Source: Thermodesulfobacteriota bacterium (GTDB lineage: Bacteria; Desulfobacterota_D; UBA1144; Nemesobacterales; Mycalebacteriaceae). From it: DNA of 64,000 nt. The notes under the pieces were generated by a model that was given only the letters and a program-made list of their open reading frames with translations, had not been told where the DNA came from and searched no databases. The translations under genes were made by a program, and so were the position numbers. Shown in pieces: positions 18,969 to 45,882 of this stretch (its first letter is position 1; every line of letters starts with the position of its first letter). Location of the stretch: the NCBI GenBank assembly GCA_965205855.1, contig OZ242184.1, positions 896,001 through 960,000 on the forward strand, read 5' to 3'.

Positions 18969-21154
<2,186 letters not shown>

Positions 21155-32748: not shown

Positions 32749-33003
32749 TCACTCTGCGGGAGAAACGACCGAGACGGTGTTTCTTTTTCCTTTGCGGAAT
32801 TTCACAACTCCGTCTGCAAGAGCAAAAAGCGTCCAGTCCCGTCCGGTTCCGACATTGTCTCCGGCGTGAAAAGAAGACCCTCTCTGGCGGATGATGATGT
32901 TTCCCGCTTTGACGACTTCTCCGCCGAATTTTTTAACGCCGAGCCGTTTGCCCGCCGAATCTCTTCCGTTTCTTGAACTGCCGCCGCCTTTTTTTGTGGA
33001 CAT
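32749..33003 (-). CDS. rpmA: 50S ribosomal protein L27
   Basis: [19 protein letters not shown]. Confidence 0.98.
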
Positions 33004-33015
33004 TCTCTGTCTCTC

Positions 33016-33333
33016 CTACCCTTTTATACCGGTTATGCGAACCGATGTGTATCTCTGCCGGTGTCCGGCTTTAAGTCTGTATTTTTTGCGTCTTTTGAAT
33101 TTAAAAACGGTAATTTTAGGTCCTTTCTTCTGAGAGACGATTTCGCCTTTAACTTCCGCTCCGTCAACAACGGGAGTACCCACGCGCGCCTCACCCTCTC
33201 CGTCCGAAACCATAAGCACATCGGGAAATCCGATCGTGTCTCCGGGGCTACCCTCGATTTTTTCTATGTCAAGAACATCTCCGGATTTGACCAAGTACTG
33301 TCTGTTTCCTGTTCTTATTACTGCCTGCTGCAT
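33016..33333 (-). CDS. rplU: 50S ribosomal protein L21
   Basis: AVIRTGNRQY, KFKRRKKY...GHRQ. Confidence 0.98.
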   Translation of the reverse strand: MQQAVIRTGNRQYLVKSGDVLDIEKIEGSPGDTIGFPDVLMVSDGEGEARVGTPVVDGAEVKGEIVSQKKGPKITVFKFKRRKKYRLKAGHRQRYTSVRITGIKG

Positions 33334-33357
33334 AAAGATTGCTCCGCTCTTGGAAGG

Positions 33358-34116
33358 TCAATTATGCCACAAAAAGGGATGGAGTGTCAAACTATACGGC
33401 GACCGCCTGATAGTCGGGGAGTTCACCCATTGTTTTCCCTCAAGAGCGCGTCCCGTCTTCTTTTTGTTCACACCGCCCCATTGTTTGAAGAAAAACGGAA
33501 CCCCGCTTTCAACGCAGTTGTCCCTGATTTCCGTAACCCATTCCTCTTTCATCGGTCTTGCGCCGGGGCCGGACTCTCCACCGACAATGACCCAGTCTAT
33601 GCCTGACAAATTGAGGTTTGGAAACGGGGCAAGCAACGGTTCAAGAGAAAGAAACTTCACGCAAGCATCGGTCTGTTTTAAAACTTCTGTACGGGAAAGA
33701 TATTTCTCGGACTCTACGCTTGTTCCCATCCAGATGTTGGAAGTCCAGTGCAGGTGTTTGTTCGCCTTCACAACCCTTTCCGGTCTTTTTGTGAGAACCT
33801 GAAAAGTGTGTTGAGATGCTTCGTTCATAACTTCAAAAACGGACATAATGAATTTTGCGGGAACATCCTTGTGGAACAAATCGCTCATTGAATTGACAAA
33901 AACTATTTTCGGTTTTTTCCATTTAAGCGGGTCTTTCAAAGTGTGTTCATGAGTGGTGAGTTTGAAACCGTTTCTGTATTTCTCCATCCCTTGAGCGTGA
34001 AGCCGCTTTGCCATCCGCTCGGCGTAGCAGTATTTGCAACCGTGGCTGATTTTTGAACAACCGGTAATGGGGTTCCATGTTGTGTGAGTCCATCCTATTT
34101 TGGAGGGTTGGGTCAT
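33358..34116 (-). CDS. DUF5131 / phage Gp37-Gp68 family radical-SAM-like protein
   Basis: [65 protein letters not shown]. Confidence 0.93.
33361..33390 (-). promoter_or_regulatory. putative sigma70 promoter of rplU-rpmA
   Basis: minus strand TTGACA-N18-CATAAT with TG extended -10. Confidence 0.6.
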
Positions 34117-36659
34117 TACTGTTTGTTGATAACACCGTTTATATCGTCCCGCCAGCTGTCTTCAAACATCATCCTGAAAGTAGCGGGCGTCTTATTGATG
34201 GCCATTTCGCCTCTGTCAAGGGCGATCCTGTATGTTTTTTCAAGCGTGTCGAGCAATTTTTTCTTGTAACTCGTATCTTCGCTGCCTTTCAGGTGGATGC
34301 CCTTTGTTTCCAGAATTAGCAGTTTTCCGTTATCTTTTCGGCAGGCCACAAAATCGGGATACACGCGCTGGCGTCGCCAGCCTTGCAGATAGTACGCTTG
34401 TCTTGCAGCTATTCTGTGCCACCAGTAGATGGCGTTGCTCTTATCCAGATAAAGCGCAAAATCCCGCTCCAGACCGTTAAAACTACTTTCATAAACAGGT
34501 TCAAAAAGGTTTTGCTGTATAGGTCTGCCATGTTCGCTCTGTAATGATCTTTCTTGACTGGAAACAAAAACCTCGAACGACTTGCTCAATTCGTAGTCCA
34601 GTCGCTGGTCGGTCTCAAGGTGAAACCGAATCACATTCCGCCCAACCTTTTCCCGAAACACCGCTTCGGCCTCGTCGTCTATGGCCTTGTTCACGCGGCG
34701 GCTCAATTCTTCGGAAAGGTAAATTCGGTTATTCAACAATTTGCTTTCATCGTGTTTCCTGTTTTTATGTGTTTGAATAAACCCCTCCGCCATGCGCGCC
34801 GCCTGCCACGGATTGGGCACCTTGTCCACAAGCCGCCGAACAAAATAATCCACGCTCAGCCGCTTTTCGCTGTCAGGGATTTGTTCCGAAGCCTTAACCT
34901 GCCCTTGAATGTCCACCGTGGTTTTGATCTCCTGAGTGATGTCTCTATCATCCAGATTCACCGCTGCGCCCGCGTCAATGGTGTCCCAATCAATCGCGCT
35001 TAATATATCGCGGTCGTAATCAATGGGGCGCCAGGTGCGCCCCGCTTTGTGTAACACCTGCGGGAGAAAAATTTTCAATGGCCGGTATTTACCACGACGT
35101 TTGACGGTGGTCGGTTTCGGTGCATCGCCCTCGCCATGCCCGTGAACAAAATCGCCAAGCCCGGTCAGCCCTTCATTCTCCAGGCCGGCCTTCACGCCTT
35201 TGATCGCCTTGCCTACGACCTGATTATAGCAATAGATATAACACTGGTTCAGCGCATCGCCTTGTGCGATTCTGCGTGCATGGGGTTGCCGCATCACCCG
35301 ACCGACCATTTGCGTGATGGCGGTGGTTGCGGTGGTGTTATCCAGCAAGGCAAGCAGATATGCAAACGAGCAATCCCAGCCTTCTTTCAGCGCGTCTTTG
35401 GTGATAATCCAGCGCACCTCGCTTGTCTCGCTCAACAAATCCTCACCCGCAAGTTCCTTGCGTTCCGATGATTGAATCCTGATGTGATTCTCCGGCACAG
35501 CAAGATTTTGTATCAGGTATTCGCGCGCATCCTCCGAATGAATTTTTCCTTGCCCTCTTTGTTTTGCGCCCGTTCTTTCCACCCTGACCAAAGCGATGGG
35601 TCGGATATGGCGGTTTTCCTGTTCCTGTAATTTTTGCGCCGCACTTTCAAGCTCATCCAGTTTTTCCTGTGTTTTGGCAAGCGTGTGTTCCCAGTCGGAA
35701 TTGCTGAAACTGTGAATCTCTATCGGCAGTTTGATCATCTCCTCGTCCTGGAGGTCGCGGCCCGATGTGTTGACCAGGATATTGCTGATGCCGATTTTCG
35801 GCGTGGCGGACAGTTCAAGCACAAAACGGGGGTTGAGCCGGTTGACGGATTTGACAAACTCCTGGTTGTTTTGATTATTCGGTCCATATGCTTTATGCGC
35901 TTCGTCCAAAATCACCGTGGGACGAATCAGTTTCAGCACATTGATCAGGCTTTGCTTAACCCAGTCGCCGGGTGCATTTTTCTCCAGGTCGGGATGGTGT
36001 TCCGAAAGCGTTGCATTGGCCGCCGCGTCATCCTGCTCGGGAAAAAACGACATATACCCGCTGCTGTCGCGGAATATTTTGAGAAACTCCCTGTTCTTTT
36101 GCCGGTTGGCGGAGGGTAGCATCAGCAGCATAATGCAAAGATAGTTTTCGGTATCCTGTCGGGTAAAGCGGTCGGTTTTTTGCAACAATTTGACCCTGCC
36201 GCCAGACATATGTTCGAGCATCTGCCGGTAGGTATGTTCGCGGGTGTGGAACGCCTGGCGGGTCTGCTCGTAGATCGCCCGGGTCGGCACAATCCACAAC
36301 ACAAAGCCGGTATCCCGCTTGATCCGCTCAAGCGTGGCCACGCCCAACAGCGTCTTGCCGCCGCCGGTCGGCACCTTCAGGCAAACATGCGGGATGGGTT
36401 CGCCGGATGCCGCAGTGCGGGAAATGTAGCCGGGAACTGCCATGTCACCGTCTTGGGAAATGCCGGGGAGGATATTTTGATCTTTCAGCGCCTTCCAAGC
36501 TAAGAGGGGATAGTTTTGCAGTTCTTCAGGAATATCAATCCCCGACTCTTCAAGAGCTTTGCCCGCCTTTTCACTAGTCAGCCGCGCTTCCTTGAGCGCG
36601 TCCAGCCAGCGGTCTAACTGTTCAAGAGCTTGTTGCTGATAGTTTTTCAGGGAGAGCAT
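34116..36659 (-). CDS. res: type III restriction Res-like SF2 helicase-nuclease
   Basis: Q motif [40 protein letters not shown]-terminal YPDF...ILETKG nuclease; start MLSLKNYQ at 36659. Confidence 0.9.
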
Positions 36660-36660
36660 A

Positions 36661-37218
36661 TCACGGATTTTTTGAGTCAGTACTGTCTGAATTATTTGGC
36701 AAATTGATGATTTCAACAGGCACATTCCTTTTACCAACTGCAAGACCGACAGCGTAGTTACGGATAATAGTTTGATCCATTTCCATATCCGCATAGCCTT
36801 GTGGATAGTACGAACCCCTTAGAATTTCCATCTGTTCTACCTTAAAATCTAGCACCTTGGCCATTGAGCTAAGCATCTCCGTGAGCAATTCCATTTGCTC
36901 CTTGCCGAGTCGTTCATAGTGCGAACGAGAATCATTTTCTTCGTTAGGCCTCTTAGCATGCGTTTCACCATAATGCTTGCGGAGTGCTGCCCATTTTTCT
37001 ATAACTTCTTTATGCTTAACAAATTCTATCTCAACCAGATTAATGGCTCCGACATAATCAGGTGATAAACGCGCATTTCGTGTACGCATTAACGTCTTGA
37101 ATATATCCATTTTTCGCGCCTTTTGTTCGCGCCATCTGTCAAGAAGACCGTTAACCCAGACAGCTGCGCAAGGACCGATTAAGATGGCTGCAATGGTGAT
37201 GATAGAATATGAATTCAT
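36661..37218 (-). CDS. hypothetical protein with N-terminal TM helix (DUF6680-like)
   Basis: hydrophobic N-terminus; RKMDIFKTLMRTR...SPDYVGAINLVEIEF; YYPQG; family assignment from memory. Confidence 0.65.
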   Translation of the reverse strand: MNSYSIITIAAILIGPCAAVWVNGLLDRWREQKARKMDIFKTLMRTRNARLSPDYVGAINLVEIEFVKHKEVIEKWAALRKHYGETHAKRPNEENDSRSHYERLGKEQMELLTEMLSSMAKVLDFKVEQMEILRGSYYPQGYADMEMDQTIIRNYAVGLAVGKRNVPVEIINLPNNSDSTDSKNP

Positions 37219-37220
37219 GT

Positions 37221-38860
37221 TTATCTTATACCCTCATATGGTAATTGGGCAAAAGTTATCCCCATCTCGGTTAATGCTTTTTGTCCCATGAATTTGTGAG
37301 TGGCGAACACCACCGCGGTTTTCTTTTTTGCCTTGGCCTGTTTGGCGATGCGTTCGGCGCGGGTGCTGTTCAAAGCGGAATCCGCACTGCGCAGAAAATC
37401 AAGGTTCGGCTCGTAGATCAGGTAAAACATTTTGTCACCTGCTTCATAAAATAAACCGTCTTTGCCACGCCTTGTTTTCGGGTTGAGTTTATGCGGCGAT
37501 TGTCCGCTTGCGGTATAGATCAGATGGCGGGCAAAGGTTTCATAGCCCGGCAGGTTCCTGCCGGTGAGCATTTTTTCAATGCTGATTTCATCGCCCAGTG
37601 TGCAATAGGCAAAACTGCCGCCCAGTCCGTTTTTTAGGTTCTCATCCTTTGCTTTTGGTATGCCCTTTATCACACGGCGAACGCGCTCGGCGGTGATTTT
37701 GTCGGCGTAGTCTTCGCATTCCACCAAGATAAATTTGCGGTTGCCGCCGTCTTCCTTGTTCAGCGCAAGCACGGCGTGGGCAGTGGTGCCGGAACCGGCG
37801 AAGGAGTCGAGGATAATGGCGTTTTTTGTCGTTGCCAGTTGTAAAATCTTTTTCACAAGGGAAATTGGTTTGGGGTTTTGGAACTGATTAGAACCAAACA
37901 CCGTCCTCAACTCGATTGTGCCGTTGGTTGTTGTACCTACATCATCCCACCAAGTGCTAGGCGTTAACCCCCTTCGGCGTGCCTCTGACAAAAAACGTTT
38001 GCGCTGAGGTCTGGAACTATTTCTCTTTCCGAATACGATTCTATTGTCTGCAAGAAGCTCCTCAAATTTGTTCAAATCGTTTTTCCAGCAATTACCTTCA
38101 GTGGGGTAAAATATTTCTTTTGTTTTAGGGTTTCTTATCGGATACATCTGATTAGGTCGAACCCCACCAGCCTCAAATGGATCCGCCTTCCATGGGCCTC
38201 TCGGATCATTATCAGGATTTTTGAATCCTTCTAAAATGGCAGGAAGTTTGAAATCTTTTCTAATGGTTTTTAATACATTCAGTTGTTTAGCATAAGCTAT
38301 ATTATGAGTGTGTGATATTGATACTAATGCAGGATTTGTAATTGATTTTGTGCTATGCCACACAAAATCTGCAACAAAATTCTCCTCCCCAAAAATCTCA
38401 TCCATGACCATCCGCAGGCGGTGCTGTTCATTGTCGTCGATGGAAATAAAAATTACGCCATCTTCGGCCAGCAATTCTCTTAACAACTGCAATCTTGGCC
38501 ACATCATGCACAGCCATTTGTCGTGCCGCTCCAGGTCTTCGCCATCCACCGGACTTTTGCCTTTCAGCCACGCCTTCATCATCGGGCTGTTGACATTGTC
38601 GTTATAGACCCATTTCTCATTGCCGGTGTTGTAGGGCGGGTCGATGTAAATGCAGTTGACGCGGCTGGCATAGCGCGGCAGCAACGCCTTGAGCGCGTGC
38701 AGATTGTCGCCGTGGATAATCAGATTGTCATCAAGGGAAGGGTTACCCCCCCATTTTTCGCTGAAAGAGATTTTTTAGTGTCTATCTCAAGTGTCCTGGA
38801 CGGAACAGTCAGGTGGTGCGCATAAATGAGTTGCTTCCCTTTGAAATCAATTGTCGGCAT
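37221..38860 (-). pseudogene. mod: type III Mod N6-adenine methyltransferase, frameshifted at G7 tract (38746-38752)
   Basis: ATG 38860 gives MPTIDFKGK...; NLIIHGDNLHALKAL, IYIDPPYNTG and ILDSFAGSGTT lie in another frame; 1640 nt, one added nt gives 547 codons. Confidence 0.88.
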
Positions 38861-39017
38861 TGAAAACCCCGTAAATCAGTTTGATATTGGCTTTGAAGAT
38901 ACCCGATTTACTCCCCCAACCTAAACCCCTCAACCTCCCGATGCACCGCCCCTTCCCGTCTCAATTCACTCTCCATCAAACAAACTCTTTCAGAAGCAAA
39001 ACCAAGTTCAAACTGCG
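38854..39017. repeat. 164-bp direct repeat copy 1 (thpR 3' end + spacer + first 7 nt of mod)
   Basis: identical by manual alignment to 41675-41838 (offset 2821). Confidence 0.95.
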
Positions 39018-39517
39018 CCCGCGGTGACATGGAGAACCGGATCAAGGATCAGCAGTTGGATTTGTTTGCGGATCGCACCTCTTGTCACCGCTGGTGGCCC
39101 AACCAGTGCCGGCAGTTGCTGTCAGGGTTGGCTTACACGTTGATTGAGGGATTGCGGCGCCTTGCACTACAGGGCACCGAACTGGCCAAAGCCAGTCCTC
39201 ACAGGATCAGGCTGACACTGCTTAAAATCGGTGCCGTGATCATCCGCAACACGCGCCGCATCCGCCTACTGATGAGCAGTGCTTATCCCCATCAGGCGTT
39301 GTTCCGCACGGCAGCCTATCGGCTCAACTCCCCATAAACCCAACCCAGTGCTGCCCCGGCATGTTGATAAACAATGGGGGTAGGGGGAGTTGCGCCCGAA
39401 ATCTGTGAACAACGAAAGAATTGATCAAAGAACAGGCAACTGCATCATATGATGCATCGACAGGGATGGCGCTACCGAAAAATCGACCACCACCGCTTCA
39501 CTCATGAAATATCCGGG
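39018..39517 (+). mobile_element. IS1380-family remnant (transposase C-terminus and right end)
   Basis: ARGDMENRIKDQQLDLFADRTS...IRLTLLKIGAVIIRNTRRIR (stop 39337); terminal ATGAAATATCCGGG at 39504-39517. Confidence 0.9.
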
Positions 39518-39528
39518 ATAGTCTCGCT

Positions 39529-40668
39529 TTATTTTCGGATGAGAAACAGAAATTCTTTATTCGGATCGCTGGATTCCCGCAACCACTCATTTGTCCATTT
39601 CATGGCGGCCATCACATTTTTTTTATACTCAATTTTTGCGCTATCCACAATTTCTCCGTTACGCGTTATCACCTCGTTTAATTCCTCCGCGGTTGCTCGT
39701 CCACCGGAACTGTAAGAGAGCAAGATCCATCGGCAAGGAGTTTCCTTCAGCAAACGCTCTATGGCTTCCACCACAACCAATCGTCCTGATTTGCTTCTAC
39801 GAAATTCCTCGAACACTGAAGTCGCCACTTTATCGGATGTGTCTTTTCTGCGGAGGGACTTGCCAAATAGCACGGGATGATCATTTTTACATATGGTCGT
39901 CCACAAATGATAATATGAAGCGTACCGAACCCTTGAAGGTGGCATTTTTTCATTGTTTGACCCATACGGAGGATCAAAATAAGCAAGATCGGCGTCCGCT
40001 TCGGGAAGTACCTTAAAAACATCACCACACAGCACCGTGTTTTCGATTTCATTTTTCCACAACCGTGGCACTTTCAATTGTAAATTTTTGAATGAACGCG
40101 GCGACCAATCTTTTAAATAAGAAACAAAATGACCAAGAGTACTGTCTATCTCATTCAACCCTAAAATCAGGCTTGTCAATGCCACACTTTTGGAAACGTC
40201 ATCCAGCATCAAGGCATCGATCTCTCTCCTGATTGCATCAAGTTTTCTTGTATTTTTTTTCTGCCAAGGCTTTTTGGTTCCATCCTTCTGAATAGCATTA
40301 TGGCAAGTTCCAGAGCGAACATCACCACCGTAATTCTCAGTAAACCATCCGTCTTCCGGAGGAAGCGAATTTAAATGATCAATAAGAGGTTGGTATATTT
40401 TCGGGTTTTTTAAGTTTTTCAAATAGCACGTGGCAAAAATTCTTGACCATTCGGAAATATCATTTGATACCACGCGATATCCTGCTTGTGCAAAAGATTG
40501 ACTTACTCTGGTGGAGCCTGAAAAACCGTCAAAAATGCTTTTTGCTCCGGTCTGTTTTGACAGATTAAAAATATGTGGAAGCAGTTTCAGTTTTGAGCCT
40601 GCGTAATTGATGCCTTCGGTTTTTGGAACATCAATCCAATCACGAAAAATTTGAACTTGCCCTTGCAT
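39529..40668 (-). CDS. D12-class (alpha group) N6-adenine DNA methyltransferase
   Basis: YAGSKLKL, FDGFSGS (motif I), YFDPPY (motif IV), LLSYS. Confidence 0.92.
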   Translation of the reverse strand: MQGQVQIFRDWIDVPKTEGINYAGSKLKLLPHIFNLSKQTGAKSIFDGFSGSTRVSQSFAQAGYRVVSNDISEWSRIFATCYLKNLKNPKIYQPLIDHLNSLPPEDGWFTENYGGDVRSGTCHNAIQKDGTKKPWQKKNTRKLDAIRREIDALMLDDVSKSVALTSLILGLNEIDSTLGHFVSYLKDWSPRSFKNLQLKVPRLWKNEIENTVLCGDVFKVLPEADADLAYFDPPYGSNNEKMPPSRVRYASYYHLWTTICKNDHPVLFGKSLRRKDTSDKVATSVFEEFRRSKSGRLVVVEAIERLLKETPCRWILLSYSSGGRATAEELNEVITRNGEIVDSAKIEYKKNVMAAMKWTNEWLRESSDPNKEFLFLIRK

Positions 40669-41517
40669 TATGTAACTTTAAAGCGGGAAGCCTGCTTGAG
40701 TCTAACAATATCATCTTTCACTTTTGCAAGAGCCTCATTCTGGCCGAAATCAGAAGAAACAAGCGCGTGAGAAAATAGTTGGACCAAGATAGGATTGTGA
40801 GAATAATCAACCCATCCATTGGTTATGCTATCAAAATAGTTTAAACCACTTTTTGTATGAGTCCAAAGCCCTCGCTGGAGGGCATTGGCGGTTGCGCTTC
40901 CATAACGCACCTCGCAAATATAAGAATCGCTTGCATCGTAGAAACGATATACTGGGTGCTTTCTACCTTTCTTTTTTGTTTCTTTTACTATTTTCACCGT
41001 TTCAGTTTCAGCGCGGTGGTAATCGAAGACAAGAATATTACACTGTCGATTTTTTTCGTCATAAATTAATGGCAAAACATTTACATTGTAAAAATCCGAG
41101 AAAGCGGGGTCGGCAAGCACTCGTTGTACATTTTTCTTGCCCACTATTTCATCCCCCTCTTGTGCCAATCTCGGAAACATTTTGAAATTCTTGTCGGTTG
41201 AAAGTTGAAGGGGACCATCACCATACGCTTTGATGCTAACAGGAAATTCAGCTTCGGTTACTTCATTTATTATTTTGATGTCTTCTTCCCGAGATTTGGC
41301 TCTGTATAAATCTTTGCCAACATGGATCGAGCGAAAATCATACATACTACTGGTTGATAAATTCGGCTATGGCGATTTCTGCCAAATCTCCATGTGTTTT
41401 ATTTCCAATGAGGCGCATGGTGAAAATGTTGCTCAATGTCAAGATTATTAAATCCGGGCGTTTACTCGCAAGAAGCTTCAATCTCGAGATGAAATCTTTA
41501 TATGGATCATTTTTCAT
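40668..41517 (-). pseudogene. putative type II restriction endonuclease split by a 1-nt insertion
   Basis: two abutting ORFs joined at CAG TAG T ATG; PD-(D/E)xK-like EEDI...VSIKAYG; TAATG overlap with the MTase; 850 nt, removing one nt gives 283 codons. Confidence 0.7.
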
Positions 41518-41674
41518 GTTTTTCGTTTGATGCCTCTGTTTTGGTATTTTTATCAACCTTCATTTTTCAGATCGTCGCATGAGCTTGGGTTGAGATGATT
41601 CGGTAGCGTCATCGAGAATTCATGTGTATCAATTGCTGTTCAAGTTTAACCCGTTTTGCCTGTAAATCACCCAA

Positions 41675-41904
41675 TCGGCATTGAAAACCCCGTAAATCAG
41701 TTTGATATTGGCTTTGAAGATACCCGATTTACTCCCCCAACCTAAACCCCTCAACCTCCCGATGCACCGCCCCTTCCCGTCTCAATTCACTCTCCATCAA
41801 ACAAACTCTTTCAGAAGCAAAACCAAGTTCAAACTGCGGCAATTCGGGTAGCTTCATCCTTTTTTTTATCCACCCTATCGTAACGTGCGACATAAAATCC
41901 CGTT
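41675..41904. repeat. direct repeat copy 2: diverged duplicate of the thpR 3' end plus mod upstream region
   Basis: 41697-41904 aligns without gaps to 42620-42827 (about 18 substitutions by manual count); 41675-41838 identical to 38854-39017. Confidence 0.95.
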
Positions 41905-42030
41905 ATTGTAGGCTGCTGTTATGTGTAACGGAGTTTCATATGAAAATTCTCTGCTATGAGCAATTGTGGTCACTGGGATTCTCACAATTGCTGGTTGTGC
42001 GAGCCAGCCAGATTTGACAATGACTCAGTA

Positions 42031-42441
42031 TTAGTGCTCGCCCTCTTGATTAATTTGTTTCCACAAACTGCCGATAGCAAGTAGTGCTGGAATAATAAGT
42101 AGCACCACTACAATTGGCACACTTGATTTAATTACCTCTACATTTAATGCATATACGGTAATAACATCGGATATGTCCGTCAATAATCTGACAATTAATA
42201 TCGCTAAAAGTGCTTTATGAGACTTAAGGAATAAAGCAACTATTATCCCTATAACTACCATTACATTTCTTGTAATGTAAAGTTGTGTAACATAATTCAA
42301 TTCGGAAACCTCTGGTATGAAACCACTTGGGTTCATGGCCGTACCAGCTGAGAAGAAAAGCACTAAAGATATTTGTATTAGAACAATGACCCATACCCAA
42401 ATAGGTAAGAATCCATTGGTTTGACCATTTTTGTAATTCAT
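42031..42441 (-). CDS. low-GC hypothetical membrane protein (about 4 TM)
   Basis: 136-aa hydrophobic ORF with GAGG RBS; AT-rich relative to flanks. Confidence 0.75.
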   Translation of the reverse strand: MNYKNGQTNGFLPIWVWVIVLIQISLVLFFSAGTAMNPSGFIPEVSELNYVTQLYITRNVMVVIGIIVALFLKSHKALLAILIVRLLTDISDVITVYALNVEVIKSSVPIVVVLLIIPALLAIGSLWKQINQEGEH

Positions 42442-42462
42442 ATTTGCAACCTCTTATTTTTA

Positions 42463-42619
42463 CCTAATTATCACTTAAACTAAGCAGAGTTTCAAGATAT
42501 TTTCCGGCATCGGCGGCGTTTTGAGCGCTGCATAAGCAAGTCTCGGTATTAACTCGCACAAATCAAAGCGACGATTGAAACGATACTGAAATTCTGACAA
42601 ATAACGCTGTGCGTATTTT
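42463..42619 (-). mobile_element. IS1595-family (ISSod11-like) 3' remnant
   Basis: minus strand encodes KYAQRYLSEFQYRFNRRFDLCELIPRLAYAALKTPPMPE...*, followed by GTGATAATTAGG terminal sequence. Confidence 0.82.
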
Positions 42620-42651
42620 TCAGTTTGATATTGGCTTTGAAAATACCCGAT

Positions 42652-43233
42652 TTACTCCCCCAACCTAAAACCCTCAACCTCCCGATGCACCGCCCCTTCT
42701 CGTCTCAATTCACTCTCCATCAAACAAACCCTGTCAGAAACAAACTCAAGTTTAAACTGCGGCAATTCGGGCAGTTTTATCCTTTTTCTTATCCGCCCTA
42801 TCGTAATGTGTGGTATAAAATCCCGTTTCTCCGGCTCAAAACCGATTGTCTCAAGTTTTGAGTCAATCTCGTCCTTGAGACTGAAAAACGCGTCCCCGGA
42901 TTCCGCAATCACCGCAAGCGTCTGCGTATAACGGCGGAGTATAAGCGCCTCAACCCCGTCCGTTGTGATGTCGAGCGGCACAAACCGCTTGCAACAACTT
43001 TCAATAACCCCGCACAGTTCGGGAATCAATTCGCGGCGCGTCTCTCCGAGAAACCTTAAAGTAATATGGAATTTTTCAGACAGCTCCCAACGCACATGGC
43101 GGAGCGAGCGTATTGCGGCGGAACGGGATTTTATCACCCTTTTTGCTTTTTCGGGAACTTCAAGAGAAATAAAAAGCCGGACGGTAGCGCTGTCAACTCT
43201 CAAGCTCAACATTCCAGTATGAGGCATCAACAA
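42652..43233 (-). CDS. thpR: RNA 2',3'-cyclic phosphodiesterase (2H family); start uncertain (43203-43233)
   Basis: RLFISL, HITLRFLG, PHITIGR, LMESEL...GAVH. Confidence 0.92.
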   Translation of the reverse strand: MLMPHTGMLSLRVDSATVRLFISLEVPEKAKRVIKSRSAAIRSLRHVRWELSEKFHITLRFLGETRRELIPELCGVIESCCKRFVPLDITTDGVEALILRRYTQTLAVIAESGDAFFSLKDEIDSKLETIGFEPEKRDFIPHITIGRIRKRIKLPELPQFKLEFVSDRVCLMESELRREGAVHREVEGFRLGE

Positions 43234-43801
43234 AACTTACAAACGGCTCCCATTCTTTGTAGCGGATTGGGTGCGCGTAAATGTTTGCAAACGGTCCCCA
43301 CTGCGGTTCGGAGGGAATTGTGAGCAATTTCATCCTTGCCTGTTCGGGAGTTCTACCGCCTTTTCTGCGGTTGCACGAGCCGCAGGAGCAGACAACATTG
43401 TCCCATCTGCTTTCTCCGCCGTGCGCGCGCGGAATAACATGGTCTATCGTAAGCTCGGTTTTGGAAAAATGCTTTCCGCAGTATTGGCATTTACCGCTGT
43501 CTCTGCGGAATATGTTGAAGCGCGTAAATCTCGGACGCTTTCTGTGAAATCCGCTGTAACGGAGCAGGATTATAACCCTCGGCGCTTTGATGATCCTTGT
43601 AACGGTTCTCACATAGTCGCCACGCCCTCCGGCGGCAGAGGCGGCGGAAACCTCCGCCCAACTCTCAAAATCAAAAGTCTCGTAGGTTTTTGTTACGGCT
43701 TTCGCCTCGCCGCAATAGAGCATCACAAATGCCCGTCGCAAATTGGTAACGGAAACGGGCATATAGTTTTTGTTCAAAACCAGAACCGGCGAACTCAACA
43801 T
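43193..43801 (-). CDS. HNH endonuclease (McrA-like)
   Basis: VLVLNKNY, RRDSGKCQYCG, TIDHVIPRAHGG..WDNVVCSCGSCNRRK. Confidence 0.93.
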   Translation of the reverse strand: MLSSPVLVLNKNYMPVSVTNLRRAFVMLYCGEAKAVTKTYETFDFESWAEVSAASAAGGRGDYVRTVTRIIKAPRVIILLRYSGFHRKRPRFTRFNIFRRDSGKCQYCGKHFSKTELTIDHVIPRAHGGESRWDNVVCSCGSCNRRKGGRTPEQARMKLLTIPSEPQWGPFANIYAHPIRYKEWEPFVSFVDASYWNVELES

Positions 43802-43905
43802 ATCCCGATATTTTACAGTCGGAAACGGACTATTTCAAAAAAAAACCGGCCGCTGTTGAAAAAAAGTCTGAAAAGATATAAATAGAACAAAGGCGTTTGC
43901 CGGTT

Positions 43906-44037
43906 ATGGATATTACAGCAAATATTGTTTTTCTTGTTAACTTTCTGCTCTGCGCGGGCTTTTTCTCCCTGCTGTTTGCGCTTTCGAGAACAAACGCGCG
44001 CGCGGAAAAAGCCGCCCAAGAGAAACGGCACGGTTAG
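43906..44037 (+). CDS. putative 43-aa single-TM small protein
   Basis: MDITANIVFLVNFLLCAGFFSLLFALSRTNARAEKAAQEKRHG*; its TAG abuts the lgt ATG. Confidence 0.55.
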   Translation: MDITANIVFLVNFLLCAGFFSLLFALSRTNARAEKAAQEKRHG

Positions 44038-44802
44038 ATGTATCCGGATCTTTTCAAAGCCGGAGACTTTACGGTCGGCTCATTCGGCGTTCTTGTCGCT
44101 CTGGCGTTTCTTGTCGCCTACATCGTTGCGGCGGGAGAGTTGAAAAGAAAAGGCGCGCCGCCCTCCGCCGCTCAGGACATGTTTGTGTGGATTTCTTTGT
44201 GCTCAATAGTGGGAGCAAAACTGTTCTTTGTCACGGAAAATTTCACATTTGCAGAAATAATCTCAGACCCCGTTCCGGTTCTTTTTTCGCGCAACGGGCT
44301 GACTTTCTACGGCGGTCTGCTCGGCGGGATTGCGGGCGGGATATACGCCGCGCGTAAAAACGGCGTGCAGGTGCGAAAGGCGCTTGACGCTGTGGCTCCC
44401 GCGCTTGCAATCGGCTACGCGATTGGAAGAATCGGCTGCCTACTTGTTGGAGACGACTACGGAACGGCGTCCGACCTGCCGTGGGCAATGGCGTTTCCAA
44501 ACGGATATCCGCCCGTGGATTTTACCGTTCATCCGACCCAGATATACGAATCGGTTTTAATGTTCGCGGTGTTCGCCCTGCTGTGGAGAATCAGGAAAAC
44601 CGCCATGCCCGACGGACGCCTGTTCGCGCTTTATCTCGCGCTTGCGGGCACAGAGCGGTTTCTCGTTGAGTTTATAAGAACAACCACCCAAAGCGGATTT
44701 GCCGGACTTTCAGTCGCGCAAGTCATTGCCCTTGCGTCAGTAACAATCGGATGTGTGTGGCTTGTCGTTTCCCGCCCATCGGGTTCGCGCCACGAACTAT
44801 AA
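44038..44802 (+). CDS. lgt: prolipoprotein diacylglyceryl transferase
   Basis: GLTFYGGL, GRIGCLLVGDDYG, HPTQIYES, RFLVEFIR. Confidence 0.95.
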   Translation: MYPDLFKAGDFTVGSFGVLVALAFLVAYIVAAGELKRKGAPPSAAQDMFVWISLCSIVGAKLFFVTENFTFAEIISDPVPVLFSRNGLTFYGGLLGGIAGGIYAARKNGVQVRKALDAVAPALAIGYAIGRIGCLLVGDDYGTASDLPWAMAFPNGYPPVDFTVHPTQIYESVLMFAVFALLWRIRKTAMPDGRLFALYLALAGTERFLVEFIRTTTQSGFAGLSVAQVIALASVTIGCVWLVVSRPSGSRHEL

Positions 44803-45882
44803 AACAGCCGGAACAATGTCGCGTAAACAGGCCTCAAACTCACGGTTTTCTTCCGCAAGTCCGACCGTAACCCTGAGACAGTCCTCGACACCGCCACCGG
44901 AAAAATTGCGCACAAGAACGCTTTTTTCAACAAGCGCCCGGTAAACCCTGTCCGCCGCCGCCACGTCCGGGAAACGGATAAGAAGAAAATTGGAATCACT
45001 CCGATAAACGGTAACGCCTTCAACGGCAGAGAGAGATTTGAATATTTTTGCACGCTCCGCCGCGACGGTTTTCACGTTTTCCTCAAACATCGCGCGGTTT
45101 TCAAAAAAGAACATGACCGCCGCCTGCGTGAGCGAGTTTATGTTATACGGAAGCCTGACTTTTGACAGTTGCGCGGAAAGTTCGGGACGCATAAACAAAA
45201 CTCCAAGCCGGAGAGCGGCGAATCCGATTTTGGAGAATGTGCGCATAACGGCAAGGTTCTCGTATTTTTCCATAAGCGGTGTGTTGTCCGCGCCGCAGAA
45301 CGCGCCGTATGCCTCATCCACAACAACAACCCCCGGAGCGTTTTTTATGACCGATTCCACCCTTCGGGGCGACAGCAAATTTCCGGTCGGGCTGTTGGGT
45401 GAGGCGAGAAACACAATGTCGGGGTCGCATTTCTCAATAGCGTGTTGCATAGCAGCTTCTTCAAGGTCAAACTCCGGGTCAAGGTTTTCAGAAACAACCT
45501 TTCTGCCAAGAGCCGCCGCCGTGAGCGCATACATTGAAAATGTCGGAGACGGAACAAGCACGGTTTGAGAACCACCGCAAAAAGCCTCCACGGCCATCTG
45601 TATCAACTCATCCGAGCCATTGCCGAAAACAATGCCGTCCGGACAAACTCCGCTCCATTGCGACACCGCCTCTCTGAGACGCGAGCAGTCCGGGTCGGGA
45701 TAACGGTTGAGCGGAACGCTCGAAAGGTTTTTCAGAATCTCGCCGCGCTCTCCCACGGAAAGCGGAAAAGGGCTTTCGTTGCCATCAAGCCGTATCCGGC
45801 ACTGCGGTCTTGAGGAGTCGTAAGCCGAAAGGTCGCGCACGGAGCCGCGAACCCTGTGCAGAAGTTGTTCAACGCCCGCCAT
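44797..45882 (-). CDS. hisC: histidinol-phosphate aminotransferase
   Basis: NESPF, RYPD, GNGSDE, PNSPTG, VDEAY, RTFSK; adjacent to hisD. Confidence 0.95.
   Translation of the reverse strand: MAGVEQLLHRVRGSVRDLSAYDSSRPQCRIRLDGNESPFPLSVGERGEILKNLSSVPLNRYPDPDCSRLREAVSQWSGVCPDGIVFGNGSDELIQMAVEAFCGGSQTVLVPSPTFSMYALTAAALGRKVVSENLDPEFDLEEAAMQHAIEKCDPDIVFLASPNSPTGNLLSPRRVESVIKNAPGVVVVDEAYGAFCGADNTPLMEKYENLAVMRTFSKIGFAALRLGVLFMRPELSAQLSKVRLPYNINSLTQAAVMFFFENRAMFEENVKTVAAERAKIFKSLSAVEGVTVYRSDSNFLLIRFPDVAAADRVYRALVEKSVLVRNFSGGGVEDCLRVTVGLAEENREFEACLRDIVPAVL

Follow-up and report, generated by a model that had tools for sequence, protein, structure and literature searches.

Repeated thpR 3' ends around two cassettes with cut insertion sequences at a defence-island border: a possible scar of two recombinase-free captures of foreign DNA

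How did the 3' end of a single gene come to stand three times in direct order, with different cargo between the copies and no integrase nearby? The question arises in a 64,000-nt stretch of contig OZ242184.1, here called the window. The host is a small, symbiont-type bacterium with a reduced 1.4-Mb genome. The gene is thpR, predicted to encode RNA 2',3'-cyclic phosphodiesterase; it scores 102 bits against TIGR02258 (cut-off 65.7), and both HxT motifs are kept in the alignment of the intact gene. Its true start is likely near 43212, and it overlaps the end of a conserved HNH gene (43193-43801). The repeat copies and the flanking genes are listed below in window coordinates.

42652..43233, minus strand: intact thpR (RNA 2',3'-cyclic phosphodiesterase; Pfam LigT_PEase and 2_5_RNA_ligase2; TIGR02258)
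42620..42827, minus strand: repeat copy C, made up of the final 173 coding nt of thpR with its stop codon and 32 nt of spacer
41675..41904, minus strand: repeat copy B (230 nt), which begins at thpR nt 407, runs through the stop codon and 32 nt of spacer, and ends with 22 extra nt
38854..39017, minus strand: repeat copy A (164 nt), with the final 107 coding nt of a B-type thpR allele and the stop codon, then 32 nt of spacer and 22 nt running into the mod start codon
37221..38860, minus strand: type III mod gene, whose reading frame is broken at a G7 tract (38746-38752)
36661-37218: DUF6680 gene, downstream of mod
34116 to about 36659: res, after the DUF6680 gene

Repeat search, MAFFT alignment, ungapped base-by-base comparison and blastn against the whole 1,401,274-bp genome agree on the repeat coordinates, and the three copies lie exactly, to the base, where the first-pass annotation had put them. 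Its claims of a 164-bp identity between A and B and of about 18 substitutions without indels between B and the real thpR end were likewise borne out: A (38854-39017) and B (41675-41838) match at 164/164 nt (E 3e-80), and B (41697-41904) and C (42620-42827) at 190/208 nt (E 1e-79), with 18 substitutions and no indels. Copies A and C match at 133 of 142 nt. Blastn of the region against the whole genome revealed no fourth thpR-end copy. The 22 extra nucleotides of copy B are common only to copy A and include ATGCCGA of the mod open reading frame. The stop codon lies within the repeat, which leaves thpR whole; mod retains its start too. Two cassettes lie between the copies.

39018..41674: cassette 2, 2657 nt, type II restriction-modification (R-M) module and IS1380 3' piece
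41347-41556 and 40668-41345, minus strand: R gene in two pieces (PADLOC REase_II, model positions 58-278 of 281)
39529-40668, minus strand: D12-class methylase (Pfam; PADLOC MTase_II)
39018-39522, plus strand: 3' 505 nt of an IS1380 element, transposase codons 332-437
41905..42619, minus strand: cassette 1, 715 nt, 37% GC
about 42486-42617, minus strand: IS1595-family transposase tail, approximately the last 44 codons (tblastn)
42031-42441, minus strand: membrane-protein gene, 136 aa, followed by 126 nt to the end of cassette 1

All cargo named in the first-pass annotation (the IS1595 tail, membrane gene, D12 methylase, restriction enzyme and IS1380 piece) was recovered, and two frameshifts, in the R gene and in mod, are added to it here. 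The R gene is frameshifted near 41347, where contigs of all four sequencing runs are 1 nt shorter; an unsplit R open reading frame of 281-286 aa is present in 9 of the 15 related loci examined. The R-M module is 98.3-98.8% identical to locus L027, titled Candidatus Spongiihabitans, with homology to this foreign parent spanning 39519-41683. In 4/4 runs, R-M genes about 99% identical were found on contigs with L027-type flanks, at 12-28 times the depth of this organism (runs X3, X6 and X7, in which both are measurable). Compared with this abundant form, the R-M module of the window shows 25-26 substitutions and one indel over about 2.1 kb. Judged by these matches, cassette 2 is recent foreign DNA from a donor lineage that differs from the host. 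Among 48 loci of other genomes with this R-M module, none carries thpR-end, IS1380 or cassette-1 sequence, so the repeat does not travel with the cargo.

Cassette 1 contains no R or M genes, only the IS1595 tail and the membrane gene, whose GC content is 35% (genome 49.7%). The membrane protein matched no Pfam family in a Pfam scan and was found in 0/60 relatives; a database search yielded 682 clusters at E<=0.001. In both cassettes the insertion-sequence piece breaks off within the transposase gene just where it meets a repeat, as had been claimed and as both contigs and full-length transposases confirm. The IS1380 piece matches positions 332-431 of the 435 of Pfam PF13701; against the full-length transposases P0129 and P0130 (437 aa) it shows 100% identity over their last 106 aa. 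The IS1595 piece is 58-65% identical to the C-termini of annotated IS1595 transposases (tblastn), and IS1595-type contigs continue past 42617, where the window piece is cut. With the last 106 of 437 codons left in one and approximately the last 44 in the other, neither piece is able to transpose. Four joints connect the cassettes to the repeats.

39012-39017: IS1380/thpR joint, ACTGCG common to the intact insertion sequence and to thpR (copy B, 41833-41838)
41675-41683: R-M/spacer joint, TCGGCATTG, also present in the uninterrupted spacer at copy A
41904/41905: distal joint of cassette 1
42618-42619: filler of 2 nt at the IS1595 joint, fitting neither parent

In runs X6 and X8 the insertion-sequence contigs align from 39012, and the loose-end letters that precede this position encode ..GDQYLYDKV(Y), as in P0129. 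At the R-M/spacer joint, the foreign parent L027 matches 7 of the 9 nt of TCGGCATTG, the last four exactly, giving a microhomology of 4-9 nt; loose ends of contigs begin directly after 41683 in 4/4 runs, the donor limit being taken as the point where contigs stop fitting. The seven nucleotides of mod, which the first-pass annotation had read as regeneration of the target, are present in both copies and lie inside this junction microhomology, and are thus not clean evidence. With microhomology at two joints and two filler nucleotides at the IS1595 joint, the joints are, as far as their letters tell, illegitimate. The repeat borders differ between the two events both upstream (thpR nt 407 versus nt 473) and downstream (32 nt versus 45-54 nt past the stop codon), so there is no common crossover site.

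The differences between copies B and C form a mosaic, with 15 in the first 98 nt (85% identity) and three in the last 110 nt (97%), an uneven split (Fisher p = 0.002) in which the first 13 nt at the upstream border are identical. Of the 17 coding differences, 10 are at third codon positions. Copy C is equally distant in both halves from the ortholog in G005, a relative in the genus; family-consensus residues lost in C are still present in B, and derived residues occur in both lineages. Because B and C did not start as identical copies and then simply drift apart, an extra recombination step is needed, and we infer an allelic patch or gene conversion within thpR. The proposal of two independent events of different age therefore holds for two separate foreign acquisitions but not for their ages, which a mosaic divergence leaves unreadable.

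The array forms the thpR-side border of a defence island that extends from HNH-thpR to rplU. The annotation had recommended a comparison of this interval across relatives; island content differs in 5/5 genus relatives, but none of them showed an empty site or other cargo between thpR-end copies. In the only one of the five with thpR (G005), a single thpR-end copy is followed by an alpha/beta hydrolase gene, and the neighbours differ. An empty site has only one stand-in within the genome itself, the unbroken thpR-spacer-mod sequence at copy A. The ancestral order thpR-mod suggested earlier is supported as an adjacency that preceded the second event (13 unambiguous nucleotides and nine that also fit the foreign parent), but it is not ancestral for the genus. 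No conspecific genome was found, metagenome scans giving 0 matches or only <=35% identity, and no excised cassette form was found. With no empty site, alternative cargo or excised form among these results, the earlier description of a self-renewing capture site is an idea only. Its statement that the island lacks an integrase is upheld: Pfam scans of open reading frames from 25 to 52 kb were clean. The nearest tyrosine recombinase, and the only one in the window, is XerD at 18969-19904 (TIGR02225, 341 bits), and tyrosine-recombinase matches number three genome-wide. Ku was not found in the genome; a ComEC match was, as in 10 of 14 control genomes.

The reading we prefer, to which we give about an even chance, is that the array is the scar of two successive recombinase-free captures of foreign fragments at the thpR end. 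On each occasion a linear piece of foreign DNA with arbitrary ends would have entered the last 110-175 nt of thpR and the spacer. One piece would have reached from the middle of an IS1595 element to 126 nt beyond the membrane gene; the other would have started 118 nt upstream of the type II R gene and stopped midway through an IS1380 element. The ends would have been joined at a staggered break by illegitimate recombination, through microhomology or end joining, and fill-in or templated repair would have placed the DNA between the two break points on either side of the insert. The result would belong to the class of insertion with long target duplication, the duplicated stretches being 208 nt and 155-164 nt long. 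We infer both the staggered break and the order of the two events. The repeats would be passive by-products that permit RecA-dependent loss of a cassette, rather than a dedicated capture device.

The same genome holds a second locus of this architecture. There the 3' end of a HAD-hydrolase gene is repeated, at 92% identity over 159 nt, 2852 nt downstream of the intact gene, and the pair of ends brackets a PADLOC HEC-01 gene pair. A DUF7387 gene lies inside this insert, and its homolog (48% aa) directly adjoins the same HAD gene in G005. The second locus counts in favour of capture with target duplication and brings the total to at least three events at two loci. It speaks against this reading that a random process does not account for two hits falling within one stretch of 200 nt in a 1.4-Mb genome.

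The best surviving alternative, which we consider possible if rather doubtful, is that a relative's form of the locus was imported, with homologous recombination at one side and an illegitimate joint at the other (homology-facilitated illegitimate recombination), or through one-ended break repair templated by the donor. Donor thpR with its cargo would pair within thpR and the far end would join by microhomology inside the resident gene, so that the resident 3' end survives as the remnant and intact thpR bears the donor 3' end. Copies B and C resemble different alleles in this way, being 15% apart in the first 98 nt with derived residues in each and with most coding differences at third positions. 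The 6-nt microhomology at the distal joint of cassette 2 and the presence of ComEC agree with import, although ComEC is also matched in most control genomes, and an imported locus is expected to place the DUF7387 homolog beside the same HAD gene, as G005 does. However, donors would already need illegitimate proximal joints (R-M/spacer and IS1595/spacer), which merely shifts the problem of origin, and the complete identity of A and B demands a donor with an identical allele. A search of 5.8 billion proteins yielded no full-length B-type thpR (best 80-82%), and none of the 48 R-M loci offers a donor with a homologous anchor joined to cargo. The 97% likeness of B and C over the last 110 nt is not predicted by a plain split between donor and resident, and the copy differences at the second locus are even over codon positions (5/3/4).

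An assembly artefact, in which strain haplotypes or DNA of an abundant organism are threaded serially through repeats of 164-208 nt, is highly improbable. The R-M module, both types of insertion sequence and type III R-M genes do occur in more abundant community members, and no contig among the pieces listed bridges any of the four joints, so the order of the array is that of the assembly. However, the joints share 0-9 nt, far below the overlap length of assembly; the R-M module has its own haplotype, distinct from the abundant form; and a real molecule must underlie the joints that link a cut insertion sequence to the interior of thpR. Run X3 yielded contigs without errors for cassette 1 and for both flanks at the organism's own depth (442-488), and the second locus of the same kind lies in the same genome.

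Site-specific integration at the thpR 3' end by a recombinase acting in trans, with the cassettes as integrase-less satellites accreted in tandem, has the least chance of these readings and is hardly credible. It would fit the layout of intact gene, cargo and remnant, as known from tandem accretion at att sites, and the 13 identical nucleotides at the upstream border of B and C; against it, the borders differ on both sides without a shared core, the supposed elements are cut insertion sequences and gene fragments with arbitrary ends, the island has no integrase, tyrosine-recombinase matches in the genome number only three (the one in the window being XerD), and a thpR end lies beside the R-M module in 0/48 other genomes. 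Insertion mediated by the insertion sequences themselves was rejected, given an IS1380 cut at codon 332 of 437, an IS1595 with about 44 codons left and duplications of 164 and 208 nt.

Recombinase-free capture allows a broader reading, which is speculative and which we regard as unlikely: the end of a core gene at a defence-island border would be a preferred entry point, where staggered breaks lead to microhomology-mediated capture of any available foreign fragment, with a long duplication that leaves the genes on both sides whole, and this would occur often enough in this reduced genome for cassettes to stack. Restriction attack, or the adjoining conserved HNH nuclease gene, might be the source of these breaks. 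If true, this would be a general route by which symbionts free of integrases build and shuffle defence islands, and identical repeats would let cassettes be lost or passed on.

The array shares traits with several known systems. As in one-ended transposition of adjacent DNA by ISEcp1-type IS1380 elements, an IS1380 end adjoins the R-M module, about 6 nt beyond the stop codon of the methylase gene, and such transposition may explain the module's first exit from a Spongiihabitans-like context. Unlike that type, the window IS1380 is without its first 331 codons and left end, and the module is bounded at its far end by a microhomology joint rather than by an IS-like end with a short target duplication. 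Accretion at att sites in gene 3' ends, as in integrative and cis-mobilizable elements and prophages with a replacement gene end, needs an integrase and a fixed core. The array resembles it in that cargo is separated by copies of the target 3' end and the target gene is regenerated, and differs in that borders vary between events and an integrase is absent. Homology-facilitated illegitimate recombination in natural transformation was reportedly described by de Vries and Wackernagel and by Prudhomme et al., both in 2002. It shares a homologous anchor at one end, a few nucleotides of microhomology at the other (here ACTGCG) and the lack of a dedicated recombinase; it usually deletes resident DNA beside the anchor rather than duplicating part of the anchor.

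The closest likeness is to insertion with long target duplication of restriction-modification genes, which Nobusato et al. are said to have described in 2000 (in Gene 259:99). The terms "long target duplication" and "microhomology" were not found together in the literature searched. The match to this class put forward in the first-pass annotation agrees in its traits with the available part of Furuta, Abe and Kobayashi 2010 (PMC2853133), where cases comprise R and M homologs in an insert of <20 kb with direct repeats of >30 bp, no linked mobile element or mobility gene, and a repeat that aligns with a single-copy empty site. In the same part, repeats often cross a stop codon, no integrase is involved and the authors suspect double-strand breakage. 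Here, cassette 2 carries R and M, the target gene is whole, no integrase is present, both inserts (2657 and 715 nt) are under 20 kb, and the direct repeats (164/164 and 190/208 nt) exceed 30 bp. Unlike the cases in that part of the paper, whose screen excluded mobility genes, each insert holds a cut, incomplete transposase gene, two events stand in tandem at one gene end, and one cargo is without any R-M genes. The repeats are 164 and 208 nt as against 46-47 bp in the three rows listed of Table 2 (PMC2853133). Both parents of two joints are partly known here, with microhomology, whereas the words "illegitimate" and "tandem" do not occur in the available text of PMC2853133.

A total of three direct copies of the thpR 3' end and its downstream spacer (A, B and C) were found by repeat search, MAFFT alignment, ungapped base-by-base comparison and a blastn search of the complete single-contig genome (1,401,274 bp) with 38000-43300 as query, confirming both the triple repeat reported in the first-pass annotation and its position. 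No further copy was found by blastn elsewhere in the genome.

Pairwise comparison of the thpR-end copies.
Copies A and B: 38854-39017 and 41675-41838; 164 of 164 nt identical; E 3e-80
Copies B and C: 41697-41904 and 42620-42827; 190 of 208 nt identical, 18 substitutions, 0 indels; E 1e-79
Copies A and C: 142 nt in common; 133 of 142 nt identical; E 8e-56

Copy C belongs to the intact gene and comprises its final 173 coding nt, the stop codon and 32 nt of spacer. Copies A and B start within thpR at coding nt 473 and 407, respectively, and copy B has 22 extra nt, in common with A alone, that reach into the mod ATG.

The array and its neighbours in minus-strand order.
lgt, plus strand
43193-43801: HNH-nuclease gene, conserved
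42652-43233: intact thpR, TIGR02258 over the cut-off, both HxT motifs present
41905-42619: cassette 1, made up of 2 nt fitting neither parent, an IS1595-family transposase tail, a 136-aa membrane-protein gene and 126 nt beyond this gene
Copy B, between cassette 1 and cassette 2
39018-41674: cassette 2, made up of 118 nt of upstream sequence, a split type II restriction (R) gene, a D12-class methylase (M) gene and, in opposite orientation, the 3'-terminal 505 nt of an IS1380 element
Copy A, followed by type III mod, a DUF6680 gene, res, a DUF5131 gene, rplU and alaS

Analysis of the cassettes revealed that both insertion sequences are partial. The IS1595 tail translates into 47 aa that are 58-65% identical to annotated IS1595 transposases, and the IS1380 piece matches the final 106 of 437 residues of the full-length transposases P0129 and P0130 at 100% identity. 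The membrane-protein gene has 35% GC against 49.7% for the genome. The R gene (40668-41556, minus strand) is split into 69 and 225 codons, and the 225-aa part covers positions 58-278 of the 281-position PADLOC REase_II model; a single R ORF of 281-286 aa is present instead in nine of the 15 related loci examined, and one base, at 41347, is missing in contigs from all four sequencing runs described below. The R gene is thus broken by a frameshift, and the methylase gene is whole. At L027, a related locus on a chromosome titled Candidatus Spongiihabitans, R is short of 639 nt and M has about 139 extra nt; once transferred, the R-M module seems to degenerate into an orphan methylase. The type III mod gene (minus strand) loses its reading frame at a G7 homopolymer (38746-38752), 108 nt past its ATG; with G8 its ORF would be unbroken from 38860 into the methylase core, and related contigs of the runs differ in length exactly at this tract, which marks either a phase-variable mod (phasevarion candidate) or a homopolymer error. 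The DUF6680 gene (36661-37218) between mod and res had no PADLOC match, and other small genes (DUF6731, DUF1828) lie between the mod and res homologs of genus relatives.

Comparison of copies B and C revealed an uneven distribution of their 18 differences: the first 98 nt account for 15 of them, the remaining 110 nt for three (Fisher p = 0.002). Seventeen are coding, spread over codon positions 1, 2 and 3 as 4, 3 and 10, with five synonymous and ten non-synonymous codons. Copy C is equally distant from the ortholog in the genus relative G005 in the two parts (76.5% and 77.5%). In the alignment of the diverged part, copy B keeps the family-consensus residues K, M and E, which are derived in C; it has a W in common with P0001, a protein with the source name Candidatus Mycalebacterium sp., and three states unique to B. 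This mosaic divergence, together with the consensus residues and the states of its own, suggests that copy B is not just a decayed C and that a diverged-allele patch or gene conversion probably acted on one of the two. A full-length thpR protein of the B type was not found among 5.8 billion proteins (best match 80-82%), an exact 29-nt piece of the repeat had no match in metagenome contigs, and a profile search of such contigs gave 15 thpR loci, all at 40% identity or less and most at 25-35%, with no close relative among them. Since the B/C divergence is mosaic, the substitution count gives no date for the first event, which had been taken to differ in age from the second. The identity of A and B shows only that either the second event or an A-B conversion is recent.

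The origin of the cargo was traced in contigs of four public runs, each from a different study (X3, X6, X7 and X8), aligned on 33000-45000. Run X3 contains exactly this strain, with zero-difference contigs over 33000-34191, 42082-42584 and 42670-45000 at depth 442-488; the depth of this organism is 27 in X6 and 32 in X7. Contigs of X6 and X7 identical over about 43060-44270 end within thpR, and the bin 42624-43024 is uncovered, which could at best hint at strain variation within thpR. Each of the four runs has the R-M region 39519-41683, or its covered part, on contigs of about 99% identity (one gap and 25-26 differences in about 2.1 kb) that have different flanks on both sides and reach depths of 5852, 528, 893 and 166. 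The flanks of these foreign contigs are present at L027, which matches most of the module at 98.3-98.8% identity. Relatives of the methylase were found at 48 loci in species-representative genomes, many of them MAGs of other phyla with titles pointing to sponge symbionts. As none of the 48 R-M loci resembles the window beyond 39519-41683, the thpR end is not carried along with the module; as only two of them (L055 and L058) have direct repeats of about 90 nt flanking R-M, long duplication is no regular trait of the module. Both IS types occur in the runs at depths far above that of this organism, and there their sequence runs on past the cut points.

The IS1380 piece was absent as DNA from all five R-M-carrying genomes searched, and cassette 1 gave just two chance-like 31-nt matches, both in one of these genomes. 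The membrane protein of cassette 1 (42031-42441) was found in none of 60 relatives and none of five further R-M-bearing genomes; viral contigs held no relative and plasmids no match. It belongs to no Pfam family and matched 682 database clusters at E<=0.001, mostly from very short contigs (0.5-5 kb), the best 120 of the 682 being 72-88% identical, the window's own entry aside; in its behaviour it resembles a passenger of a mobile element. One source is named as a gammaproteobacterial symbiont of a tubeworm. The type III res/mod genes (34200-38600) are about 90-98% identical to sequence on other organisms' contigs at far greater depth in the same runs, so the older part of the island is also drawn from a shared gene pool.

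The joints of the cassettes were read against these parents. At the IS1380/thpR joint (39017/39018), IS contigs of X6 and X8 match from 39012 on, and the X6 letters before 39012 encode ..GDQYLYDKV and the first base of Y, the residues preceding CARGDMENRIK in P0129; ACTGCG (39012-39017) is therefore common to the intact IS1380 and to thpR (copy B 41833-41838). At the R-M/spacer joint (41683/41684), the fit of the foreign contigs ends directly behind 41683 in all four runs, and the nine bases TCGGCATTG (41675-41683) also occur in the uninterrupted spacer at copy A; L027 matches seven of the nine, the final four exactly, inside a looser similarity patch. The seven nt of mod in copy B, which had been read as a regenerated target, fall within this microhomology. 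At the IS1595/spacer joint, IS-type contigs fit to 42617 and the repeat begins at 42620, leaving two bases that match neither parent. No foreign parent of the far end of cassette 1 (41904/41905) was found in R-M-bearing genomes, viral contigs or plasmids. The joints are illegitimate, being neither IS ends nor a recombinase core.

Self-comparison of the genome for close repeat pairs found one further isolated pair of this type. The last ~155 nt and stop codon of a HAD-hydrolase gene are repeated 2852 nt downstream (1,154,293-1,154,451 and 1,157,145-1,157,303; L093 2794-2952 and 5646-5804; 159 nt, 92%), with differences even over codon positions (5/3/4). The pair brackets AAA ATPase, DUF4276 and DUF7387 genes, the first two identified by PADLOC as HEC-01. 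Neither the HAD-end repeat nor the HEC-01 pair was found at this locus in the four genus relatives examined; in G005 a DUF7387 homolog (48% aa) lies directly after the HAD gene and the same UvrD-like gene further along. The remaining close pairs are mostly tandem repeats within giant genes. A 72-nt repeat pair was noted at L095. The pair 854163-854909 and 862181-862917 (L094) was rejected as one of this type, being two 94.5% copies of a DUF772/DDE_Tnp_1 transposase gene; between them lies a 2024-aa gene encoding DUF4011, AAA_11/12 and MTES_1575 nuclease domains, and the arrangement resembles that of a composite transposon.

The HNH gene and rplU are both present in all five genus relatives, and the interval between them is a variable defence island whose content differs in each. 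It measures 3.9, 5.6, 10.5 and 10.9 kb in the four relatives with both genes on one contig.

Content of the HNH-rplU interval in the five genus relatives.
One relative: AAA_15 ATPase gene and TIR-domain (CAP12/Pycsar-type) gene
One relative: three ThsB-like TIR genes
One relative: type III-like R-M genes and AAA_21/RloB genes
One relative: type III-like R-M genes and DUF5131 gene
G004 (flanks on two contigs): katG, AAA_15 ATPase gene, FRG-TPR gene and type III R-M genes

At the edges of this island, the HNH-nuclease gene (43193-43801) is 78-81% identical (aa) in the five relatives, and its HNH domain is similar to those of IscB, Cas9 and PtuB; the DUF5131 gene (33358-34116), which adjoins rplU, scores E <=1e-115 against the PADLOC candidates PDC-M41B and PDC-M30B, has an 84% identical counterpart in G005 and forms the rplU-side edge in two of the six genus genomes. 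Among the five relatives thpR occurs only in G005 (65% aa), with one thpR-end copy and then an alpha/beta hydrolase gene. The order thpR-mod, proposed earlier as ancestral, is thus not ancestral for the genus and can at most have immediately preceded the later event in this lineage.

Overall, we give about even weight to a reading of the array as two successive illegitimate captures of linear foreign fragments, that is, as insertion with long target duplication. On this reading, a staggered break would have opened the thpR end and spacer region, a linear foreign fragment with arbitrary ends would have been joined there by illegitimate end joining, twice in succession, and the stretch between the two break points would have been left on both sides of each insert; no donor with a ready-made joint would be required. 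Such capture would account for the cut IS pieces, the differing borders of the two events, the microhomologies and the identity of A and B, but it leaves the double hit in the same 200 nt unexplained and needs a later allelic patch or conversion for the B/C mosaic. ComEC is present in the genome (the same search was positive in 10 of 14 control genomes) and Ku was not found in it, which fits DNA uptake and Ku-independent end joining and is proof of neither.

The allele-like divergence of B and C and the DUF7387 gene at the second locus would also be accounted for if a relative's version of the locus had been imported by homologous pairing in thpR, with an illegitimate far joint within the resident thpR. 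We take this as the main rival, though rather unlikely; it shifts the origin of the proximal joints to a donor, and no such donor was found. An assembly artefact is very improbable: the joints have 9 nt or less of common sequence, and the R-M copy of the window is a haplotype of its own. No contig among those listed for the four runs crosses an array joint, and none has a joint skipping 2821, 923 or 3744 nt, although contigs drop rare variants and so do not bear on deletion alleles. Site-specific accretion is hardly credible, since an integrase and a common core are both absent; the island holds no integrase, as had been stated, and of three tyrosine-recombinase matches in the genome the one within the window (18969-19904) is XerD. 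An integron was rejected, IntI and a common attC-like border being absent.

How R-M and defence genes enter genomes without integrases or active transposons has been a question since this class of insertion was described. The present locus is well preserved, with an uninterrupted target beside the insert, a foreign cargo parent at 98-99% identity and an intact copy of the cut IS; because of this two joints can be read, both in short microhomologies, which points to end-joining capture of random fragments rather than to anything intrinsic to the R-M genes. The same architecture is found for the R-M-free cassette and for the HEC-01 cassette at the second locus. The locus is also a record of very recent gene flow between distant lineages in one host-associated community. 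Its practical value is modest: a well-resolved natural example with testable predictions and no new system. The first-pass interpretation is partly supported: two acquisitions of foreign DNA bracketed by thpR-end copies hold up, the genus ancestry of thpR-mod and the dating by substitutions do not, and a self-renewing capture site at the thpR end is no more than an idea.

The array would be a well-resolved case of a known insertion class. As set out in the available part of Furuta et al. 2010 (PMC2853133), this class comprises inserts of less than 20 kb with R and M genes and a duplication of more than 30 bp, without other mobile elements and with a related genome in which the site is empty; a start or stop codon often lies within the repeats, and double-strand breakage, the sole mechanistic idea in that part, is suggested as the common cause. 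The words 'illegitimate' and 'tandem' do not appear in the PMC2853133 text, and no publication combining 'long target duplication' with 'microhomology' was found in the literature searched. Measured against the class so described, cassette 2 has the R and M genes, the insert size and the duplication length, and departs from it in mobility genes solely through a dead IS piece, whereas cassette 1 lacks R-M genes. New relative to the known class are the tandem pair at one gene end, the R-M-free cargo, the HEC-01 cargo at the second locus and the joints with known parents.
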